From: a virus
Taxonomy: Duplodnaviria; Heunggongvirae; Uroviricota; Caudoviricetes
Virus record (IMG/VR): IMGVR_UViG_2703719354_000007
Strand: one strand, 5' to 3'
Length of the DNA: 5,854 nucleotides
Part shown: one piece after another, positions 3,986 to 4,665 of the stretch
Position numbering within the stretch: position 1 is the first letter of the stretch
Layout of the letters: every line of letters starts with the position of its first letter
Position numbers and translations under genes: made by a program
The notes under the pieces: model-generated
What the model was told of the DNA's origin: nothing
The model's database searches: none
Seen by the model: only the letters and a program-made list of their open reading frames with translations

Positions 3986-4665
3986 TCATGACTGTGCTGC
4001 AAAGCTCAGCGCGTCTTCCAGCGCCGCAAACGGATCCACCTCCGGCTTATCCTCATCCTCGCCCCAGCAGAGCATGGCGTCCTTCAGTGCAACATTCATC
4101 CCCTGTGCCCCAAAAACCGCTTTCACGATCTGTGCATTACGGATATCCCCGCGCTCATCACCCAGCGGGGATACCCTGTCGAACTCCATCCACATCATCG
4201 CCTCGCTCGCACTCAGGCTGTGCCGCAGTTCGGATAAGGTGCGCCCCAGACGGAGCGCAAGTCGCATCAGAAAGCAAATTTCCGGGCGGGCTACTTTTTT
4301 CTGGCCGACTCTGCATCAGCGATCAGTTCCAGTGCCTGACGCAGCAACCGGGCATGTACCGGACCATAGACGGCCAGCACCTGCTCACGGTCGTCCGGAG
4401 CGAACACCCGCTGCAGATCCGTATCACACAGGACATCGCAGAACAGCGTCACATCCGCTTCCAGGTTACGGCGGGTTTTCGCCACCACCGACAGGGTATC
4501 GTCATCCTCTCCATCACCATTGAGCACTTCCTGCCACAGATACCAGGCCTCTGCCGAAGGCTCCCGCAGCACCACGCTGACATTACCCCATTCCGGCACC
4601 TTCACCGTTTTATGACGAAACCCTGACAGTCTGGCCAGCGCCAGCGTTTTCAGATCCTTTTTCAT
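3986..4665 (-). CDS. T: Tail assembly chaperone G-T fusion, made by a programmed -1 ribosomal frameshift at 4300..4294; about 226 aa (G frame 4665..4294, then -1 frame 4294..3986)
   Basis: The -1 frame relative to G is open from about 4315 and runs through the slippery heptamer to a TGA at 3988..3986 (ORF-track 93-aa ORF 3986..4267 is the distal part of this frame). The ATG at 4267 has no convincing Shine-Dalgarno. The position (between major tail and tape measure genes) and overlap geometry match the conserved G/G-T arrangement of long-tailed phages. Confidence 0.75.
4291..4665 (-). CDS. G: Tail assembly chaperone G (about 124 aa), 0-frame product ending at TAG 4293..4291
   Basis: ORF-track 140-aa ORF (4291..4713). 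I prefer the in-frame ATG at 4665..4663 (MKKDLKTLALARLSG...), because it lies 14 nt after the V stop and is preceded by AAGGGGA, whereas the ATG at 4713 lies inside the V coding region. Small acidic protein immediately upstream of the tape measure gene and ending in the slippery site. Confidence 0.8.
   Translation of the reverse strand: MKKDLKTLALARLSGFRHKTVKVPEWGNVSVVLREPSAEAWYLWQEVLNGDGEDDDTLSVVAKTRRNLEADVTLFCDVLCDTDLQRVFAPDDREQVLAVYGPVHARLLRQALELIADAESARKK
4294..4300 (-). promoter_or_regulatory. -1 programmed ribosomal frameshift slippery heptamer A_AAA_AAG (minus-strand sense)
   Basis: Minus-strand sequence is ...GCC AGA AAA AAG TAG in the G frame. A AAA AAG fits the X XXY YYZ slippery pattern and is the same heptamer used in E. 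coli dnaX. The G stop codon (TAG) follows immediately. The -1 frame continues as GTA GCC CGC CCG GAA ATT TGC TTT CTG ATG CGA... Confidence 0.7.

Follow-up and report, generated by a model that had tools for sequence, protein, structure and literature searches.

Probable -1 ribosomal frameshifting joins tail assembly chaperone G to T at a stop-adjacent A_AAA_AAG site in an HK97-like lambdoid Escherichia coli prophage

How is the reading frame for the tail protein T reached in a phage tail module where it lies one base back from the gene that precedes it and yet is annotated as a gene of its own? The question is raised by a stretch of 5,854 nucleotides (nt) from IMG/VR virus record IMGVR_UViG_2703719354_000007 (Caudoviricetes), referred to here as the window, which is the tail module of an HK97-like lambdoid Escherichia coli prophage and carries gene G, T and the neighbouring tail genes on its minus strand. 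We hold with high confidence that T is made as an extension of G: part of the ribosomes translating G, the gene for the tail assembly chaperone, would shift into the -1 frame at its very end and produce a G-T fusion. All sequence-level features of the G/G-T -1 frameshift class of long-tailed phages are present here. The slip site itself is already known, having been predicted, clustered and reporter-tested more than ten years earlier, and its class is the best known among phage recoding sites. Positions of the features discussed are collected in Table 1.

Gene G starts with an ATG (4665-4663). The Shine-Dalgarno (SD) sequence AAGGGGA precedes this start by about 9 nt, and its anti-SD duplex has -8.4 kcal/mol. 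The gene encodes a protein of 124 amino acids (aa) and 14.0 kDa that matches Phage_TAC_1 over its entire length (1-124/124, 1.7e-61) and PHROG 344, a tail assembly chaperone family. The T frame matches Phage_tail_T (6.3e-19) and PHROG 337. A further profile of 224 positions, PHROG 14766, spans both halves, covering G (2-122) and T (125-224). No NCBIfam model matched G or T.

The sequence-only reading of this stretch had placed a slippery A_AAA_AAG heptamer in the last two sense codons of G, with the stop codon adjoining it, and this arrangement is borne out: the gene ends ...AGA AAA AAG TAG, and the heptamer occupies the two final lysine codons in the X_XXY_YYZ phase. The codon after the TAG is CCC; the GCC given for it earlier was the only slip in that reading. 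In the -1 frame, the bases of the stop belong to GTA GCC (Val-Ala). Both frames are open together only over 25 nt, and the shift must therefore occur there. A_AAA_AAG is the sole X_XXY_YYZ heptamer inside this overlap. The bare heptamer count is not significant alone, since the window holds two where 0.6 would be expected, and at least two also turn up in 23 of 200 shuffles; the weight of the site comes from its phase, its place in the overlap and its conservation. Beyond the slip site, the -1 frame continues as GTA GCC CGC... (VARPEICFLM...). T begins VARPEICFLMRLALRLGRT and ends AAQS, with its TGA at 3988-3986. The earlier estimate of about 102 codons running to 3986 agrees with the 102 sense codons counted here, which extend the 124 aa of G to a fusion of 226 aa (25.3 kDa). 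Its junction, ...SARKK|VARPEICF, is identical to the one written down for a protein of about 226 aa in that reading, and the expected junction peptide is ...SARKKVARPEICF...

An independent start of T at ATG 4267 had been named there as one of the findings that would speak against recoding. This ATG has no SD sequence: its best anti-SD duplex reaches -3.5 kcal/mol, compared with a window mean of -4.2 and with -6.6 to -10.3 kcal/mol at five neighbouring genes. The nine codons that lead from the slip site to ATG 4267 were compared across 23 indel-free representative lineages, and -1-frame differences per site came to 0.35, 0.34 and 0.55 at codon positions 1, 2 and 3. Upstream of the Met, V is conserved in 23/23 lineages, P in 22/23 (through four synonymous codons) and F in 22/23. 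The third-position variation together with the conserved V, P and F therefore indicates that the nine-codon stretch is translated in the -1 frame. The Met itself is invariant (23/23), and ATG 4267 is most likely an internal Met of G-T that belongs to a conserved F-L-M motif.

The comparison with related G/T pairs that had also been proposed was run on 134 related loci, found with a five-sequence alignment of G (a nine-sequence version with Burkholderia was too divergent), and then on about 190 more. The phase of T to G is -1 in 129 of the 133 related loci with a locatable T motif; the remaining four are given as two frame-disrupted copies (L035 and L044), KS9 and two distant Pseudomonas loci. 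The two disrupted copies, from Leclercia adecarboxylata (L035) and Ca. Symbiopectobacterium endolongispinus (L044), have a premature stop or frame change in G and no normal G/T junction, and are probably decaying prophages. The homologous gp13/gp14 pair of HK97 is annotated as a -1 frameshift, and the record of HK544 has a 'programmed frameshift'.

Experimental support comes from the published catalogues. Antonov et al. 2013 (Nucleic Acids Research 41:6514, PMC3711429) described a GeneTack cluster of 41 genes, 'phage tail assembly chaperone', HK97 protein-related, two members of which gave 6% and 7% frameshifting in a GST-insert-MBP reporter in E. coli MG1655. One of the tested 75-nt cassettes (fs-gene 15618692; 7% +/- 0.79 -1 frameshifting in E. 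coli, PMC3711429 Suppl. Table S2) matches the window at a single site, 4320-4246 on the minus strand, with one mismatch (window T, cassette C); the reporter experiment proposed for 4265..4320 has thus effectively been done. The other, an mEp390-type G_GGA_AAG_CCG_TAA cassette, gave 6% +/- 0.61, and according to the table legend the inserts also had flanks, native or vector, of 18 nt on the upstream and 45 nt on the downstream side (PMC3711429). The GeneTack 'Phage_TAC' cluster 862991913 (PMC3711429) corresponds to cluster A_AAA_AAG_25 (ECs1801) of Sharma et al. 2014 (Nucleic Acids Research 42:7210, PMC4066793), which lists it with 53 genes as 'tail assembly chaperone; [true]' (Tables S4/S7) and equates it with GeneTack cluster #10. 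Gene family, heptamer, adjacent TAG and flanks are the same in this cluster and in the window, and only one base, which exchanges Cys for Arg, differs. The G/G-T -1 recoding site is in sum supported by the identities of the genes, the 25-nt overlap, the ATG that lacks an SD sequence, the -1-frame coding signature and the reporter.

The differing base lies within 4274-4278 (minus strand, aaatt[T]gct), where the window has T and 58 related loci, like the published cassette, have C. In the T frame it turns a CGC codon (Arg) into TGC (Cys), giving VARPEICFLM in place of VARPEIRFLM, and the Cys variant is unique to the window among the loci fetched.

Taken together, the following course of events can be proposed. 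Most ribosomes on G would terminate at the TAG and release the 14-kDa chaperone, and a minority (about 7% in the reporter) would slip one base back on A_AAA_AAG. The tRNA-Lys pair would move from AAA/AAG to AAA/AAA, GUA (Val) would be the next codon read, and 102 codons would follow. The product would be the 226-aa G-T, whose C-terminal T domain shares its Pfam family with lambda T. On the lambda model, many G and few G-T molecules would coat the tape-measure protein, and the T domain would recruit the major tail protein; given such lambda-type roles, the frequency of frameshifting would thus fix the G:G-T ratio. The further claim of the sequence-only reading, that this ratio controls tail assembly, is an extrapolation from lambda and may hold here. 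We infer the mode of slippage (two tRNAs or one), what G-T does in this phage, and that the site has no dedicated stimulator.

Several points weigh against the frameshift explanation. What G-T does is extrapolated from lambda, and lambda G is a member of another Pfam family (TAC_2). The fusion in this phage is predicted from its sequence and from a near-identical cassette, and the cassette that was tested is one base off the window sequence. The GST-MBP western-blot reporter cannot alone separate ribosomal from transcriptional slippage. Finally, the bare heptamer yielded 0.29% in another reporter (4.3% with IS911 stimulators and 39% with the IS3 pseudoknot; PMC4066793), and the 7% may imply either a contribution of context or a difference between assays.

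Phage lambda is the natural reference for the locus, as it performs the same recoding event in the same place of the tail operon and its T, like that of the window, belongs to PF06223. The lambda G/G-T frameshift was reportedly worked out by Levin, Hendrix & Casjens in 1993 and by Xu, Hendrix & Duda in 2004, 2013 and 2014. The two G proteins differ in family, lambda G being Phage_TAC_2 (PF06894) and window G Phage_TAC_1. The earlier comparison of the two sites holds: in lambda, the heptamer is G_GGA_AAG and five sense codons precede the stop (gcG GGA AAG tgt tcg acg gtg agc TGA). The site in the window had been called a 'different solution' to this event, which is right for the sequence of the heptamer and not for its output, as G_GGA_AAG (0.28% bare, 3.8% with IS911 stimulators and 43% with the IS3 pseudoknot; PMC4066793) and A_AAA_AAG are equally shifty. 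In E. coli, either heptamer can stand in for the other, since each puts tRNA-Lys on AAG in the A site. The lambda shift is a low-level -1 shift, and G and G-T are both needed in the right ratio for tail assembly and are both absent from virions (review PMC5009743). For the lambda gpG cluster, no SD-like element and no hairpin stabler than background are recorded (PMC4066793 Tables S4/S8).

The closer relative is HK97, together with HK446, HK544 and HK022-type phages. In the gp13/gp14 pair of HK97, G is of the same Pfam family, Phage_TAC_1 (about 63% identity), and HK97 further agrees with the window in T family, gene order and HK97-type tape measure; only HK97 has a moron (gp15) that separates T from the tape-measure gene. 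In the G frame, the HK97 slip site is CGG GAA AAG, which gives G_GAA_AAG inside GGGAAAAG, and is followed by five sense codons (SQPPA) and TAA. The in-phase heptamer of the HK97-type loci (L005 1330-1360; L002, L003, L007, L021-L023, L033) is thus G_GAA_AAG and not the G_GGA_AAG of lambda. A P-site tRNA-Glu on G_GAA_AAG would re-pair imperfectly on GGA; the HK97 record annotates a -1 frameshift.

Outside phage tails, the heptamer recurs in dnaX and in insertion sequences (IS). The tau/gamma site of dnaX has an SD-like stimulator about 10 nt upstream and a stable, conserved stem-loop 5-6 nt downstream, shifts about 50% of ribosomes into a frame that ends almost immediately, and yields a shorter product. 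The window shares only the heptamer with it: the best upstream anti-SD duplex is -3.0 kcal/mol, no conserved stem-loop follows, the shift is about 7% in the reporter, and the product is longer by 102 codons. The dnaX heptamer is identical and is read by the same single tRNA-Lys (PMC3711429 Fig. 1 legend). In the IS3 family (IS911, IS150, IS2), A_AAA_AAG joins two overlapping open reading frames at low frequency, as in the window. These elements depend on downstream hairpins or pseudoknots, and all 8 of 8 IS clusters have a conserved hairpin, unlike A_AAA_AAG_25 (PMC4066793).

Stimulators were sought on both sides of the slip site. No SD-like element is present in the 20 nt before the heptamer, where the dnaX comparison already gave the best duplex, and SD is recorded as 'N' for cluster A_AAA_AAG_25 (PMC4066793). 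Shuffled sequences fold as well as the 144 nt that follow the heptamer (z = 0.15), and the first 60-76 nt have z = -1.5 to -2.3 in the window. A weak 9-bp hairpin, beginning 5 nt after the heptamer, was considered as a conserved stimulator and rejected: it is not kept in relatives, of which 27 representatives fold differently with z-scores mostly near 0. This agrees with the predicted hairpin of A_AAA_AAG_25, which is no stabler than background (ddG 0.020 +/- 0.023, PMC4066793 Table S8), and the proximal hairpin is probably not a stimulator. A stronger hairpin of 8 bp lies farther away, at 34 nt on the downstream side. Most enterobacterial relatives have it too, with G-U-compatible changes, and it is missing where the peptide has G-K or where the codons differ; its position coincides with the conserved L-A-L-R-x-G-R codons. 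Spacers of frameshift-associated hairpins are tabulated at 3-9 nt (PMC4066793 Table S8), and this hairpin is well beyond that range. No Rfam frameshift element was matched, the sole Rfam match being a sub-threshold one to isrK near the end of T.

What is constant across the surveyed loci in the G frame is an AAG codon preceded by A. The full A_AAA_AAG, with an adjacent TAG or TAA, is found in the window clade, in the phi467 clade and in Symbiopectobacterium, Pectobacterium, Brenneria, Serratia, Kosakonia and Enterobacter relatives, and it is kept in every window-clade locus from the viral-contig scan (G identity 86-100%). Salmonella phage SW-37 has G_GGA_AAG with an adjacent TAG, and Klebsiella, Pantoea, Silvania and Phytobacter loci have GCA_AAG, GTA_AAG or A_GAA_AAG with an adjacent TAA. 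One codon separates G_GGA_AAG or G_GAA_AAG from TAA in mEp390 and ENT39118, five codons follow G_GAA_AAG in the HK97-type loci, and 8-10 codons follow A_AAA_AAG in Xenorhabdus and Burkholderia relatives. Additional IMG/VR scans with Klebsiella-, mEp390- and Kosakonia-type G returned mostly near-identical relatives and few new lineages. In contexts without a slippery P-site codon, the stop is directly adjacent in 12/12. The first -1 codon is GTA in 19/23 representatives, compared with GTA making up 6% of Val codons in the window genes.

Klebsiella phage Kp4884-3 (L010 1380-1420) and its relatives end G with ...GCA AAG TAA (or GTA/GAA AAG TAA) and have no X_XXY_YYZ heptamer. Other loci without a heptamer are L011, L012, L034, L036, L038, L139-L218, L040/L041 (Pantoea), L050, L051, L053 and L024. 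The Klebsiella-type GCA_AAG_TAA, in which the frames overlap by as little as 10 nt, was seen in 80 IMG/VR contigs. Judging from their sequences, only a one-tRNA slip on A_AAG beside the stop could join G to T in these heptamer-less relatives. In the Klebsiella type, translation might instead reinitiate at an ATG that lies 5 nt past the stop (TAAAAATG).

These comparisons bear on a different account of the same ribosomal -1 shift, in which the stop codon would act as a stimulator: a P-site tRNA-Lys would slip from AAG to AAA while the slow UAG-C waits in the A site, GUA would then be read, and the E-site tRNA-Lys on AAA may also re-pair. The invariant Phage_TAC_1 signal would then be A_AAG with a directly following stop (a '-1 shifty stop') and not the heptamer. 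The stop does abut AAG in at least nine separate lineage groups, and a shifty stop would explain why all 12 contexts with a non-slippery P-site codon (GCA_AAG, GTA_AAG, A_GAA_AAG) have it there. The GTA bias indicates selection for TAR at that position, although the retention of GTA may reflect ordinary selection that keeps the stop codon of G. That a stop codon can stimulate slippage is established in principle (Weiss et al. 1987, as cited in PMC5009743), and no other conserved stimulator was found in the window or its relatives. However, G_GGA_AAG-CCG-TAA, whose stop is one codon farther away, gave 6% against 7% (PMC3711429), which speaks against a large effect when the full heptamer is present, and HK97-type and Burkholderia relatives have the stop 5-11 codons downstream. 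The surveyed lineages are not phylogenetically independent, and the heptamer alone permits a standard two-tRNA slip. In the literature on -1 frameshifting with a stop right after the heptamer, nothing specific to tail chaperones was found, with Xu et al. 2004 not covered. We regard the shifty stop as a possible but rather unlikely account of how the shift is brought about, and treat an A_AAG-plus-stop signal common to the family as an equally tentative proposal.

The two remaining explanations do away with the ribosomal shift. RNA polymerase could add one A to a fraction of the mRNAs, which would then encode G-T directly. The published reporter does not distinguish a polymerase route from a ribosome route, the frameshift product in the same study scales with the length of the A-run (10% with 7 A, 40% with 9 A and 63% with 11 A; PMC3711429), and some relatives have 7-8 A at the slip site. 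However, the run in the window has only 6 A (AGAAAAAAG) and transcriptional realignment typically needs homopolymers of at least 8, the G_GGA_AAG relative reaches 6% with 3 A only (PMC3711429), lineages with GCA_AAG or G_GGA_AAG retain the same G/T architecture, and the conserved element is the in-phase A_AAG, which is relevant to tRNA re-pairing and not to polymerase slippage. Transcriptional slippage is, on this evidence, very improbable.

Hardly more credible is a separate 93-aa T that starts at ATG 4267 by independent initiation, or by reinitiation after G, with no frameshift at all: PGAP and most phage records annotate T in this way, its Met is invariant across relatives, and the stop of G is only 23 nt upstream, which makes reinitiation geometrically possible, but the ATG lacks an SD sequence of the kind seen at each of the five neighbouring genes, the nine preceding codons are kept as -1-frame protein with synonymous third positions, a free-standing T would not need the fixed phase seen in 129/133 loci, the HK97 gp14 homologue is annotated as a frameshift fusion, and the reporter gave 7% fusion product (PMC3711429).

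The -1 ribosomal frameshift thus stands as the most probable explanation for a gene pair whose surroundings are those of a lambdoid tail module, with G and T flanked by the genes for the major tail protein and the tape measure. Shiga toxin (Stx)-converting and other lambdoid E. coli phages (2851, YYZ-2008, JLK-2012, BP-4795) are at least 99% identical to the G-T region. Prophages that match it were found in 1,246 of the 5,426 complete genomes of E. coli, a single genome having as many as seven copies, and the genomes that carry the G-T tail module include enterohaemorrhagic (EHEC) and enteropathogenic (EPEC) strains. In Sakai prophage Sp9, where G is ECs1801, the gene order is the same and the slip-site context is identical to that of the window.

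Table 1. Features of the window and of the G/T junction, all on the minus strand.
Feature	Position	Strand	Remarks
Tail terminator-like gene	5807-5463	minus	Pfam Tail_completion_gp17; annotated 'tail terminator' in phage 2851
Major tail protein, C-terminal immunoglobulin (Ig) domain	5396-4680	minus	Pfam tail-tube and Ig domains
Gene G, tail assembly chaperone, 124 aa + TAG	4665-4291	minus	Pfam Phage_TAC_1 (PF06222)
0/-1 frame overlap, 25 nt	4315-4291	minus	5' bound is the -1-frame TGA 4318-4316, 3' bound is the G stop
Slippery heptamer A_AAA_AAG	4300-4294	minus	X_XXY_YYZ phase of G; last two sense codons of G, Lys123-Lys124
T part of G-T, -1 frame, 102 sense codons + TGA	4294-3986	minus	Pfam Phage_tail_T (PF06223)
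G stop TAG	4293-4291	minus	directly 3' of the heptamer; next base C
Weak 9-bp hairpin CGC.CGGAAA / UUUCUG..GCG	4288-4263	minus	starts 5 nt after the heptamer
ATG of RefSeq/PGAP stand-alone 93-aa 'tail assembly protein T'	4267-4265	minus	most likely an internal Met of G-T, F-L-M motif
8-bp hairpin UGCGCUCC-GUCU-GGGGCGCA	4259-4240	minus	34 nt downstream of the heptamer, within T codons L-A-L-R-L-G-R
Terminator-like hairpin AACCGC-UGAG-GCGGUU + U run	3977-3957	minus	after the T stop and before the tape-measure start at 3938
Tape-measure protein, 1080 aa, HK97-type and lambda-type domains	3938-696	minus	Pfam
gpM-like minor tail protein	703-362	minus	Pfam

Elsewhere in the module, the major tail protein contains an Ig-like domain (Pfam Ig_3, Ig_2, I-set; residues ~149-227). 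This domain lies in the same frame as the tube domain and is a direct fusion that involves no frameshift. Two terminator-like hairpins (5419-5433 and 5460-5476, minus strand) are found between the tail terminator and major tail genes, in the same position as a 'putative terminator' annotated in HK97 and HK446. For the terminator-like hairpin downstream of T, HK97-type phages likewise have annotated putative terminators at comparable positions. The isrK match, to an Hfq-binding small RNA, covers 3957-4024 (minus strand) and is driven by this hairpin; it scores 27.1 bits against a gathering score of 50, with E = 0.001 in an 851-base search and 0.00017 in a 141-base search. By comparison with those phages, the 3957-3977 hairpin is probably a partial terminator that would tune tape-measure expression.

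The practical value of these results is in annotation, as public records omit the G-T fusion, and their value as a discovery is small. RefSeq/PGAP and most GenBank phage records give T (3986-4267; L138 754-1035; L001 3454-3735) as a separate 93-aa coding sequence with no ribosomal-slippage join, so that more than 1,200 complete E. coli genomes have proteomes that lack the 226-aa G-T. In addition, one protein family offers a natural series that runs from the heptamer with an adjacent stop, through the heptamer with a distant stop, to A_AAG with a stop only, and this series could be used to ask whether a stop adjacent to the slip site stimulates -1 frameshifting. If the shifty stop were true, the adjacent stop would be a functional stimulator, and the activity of release factor 1 would tune the G:G-T ratio.

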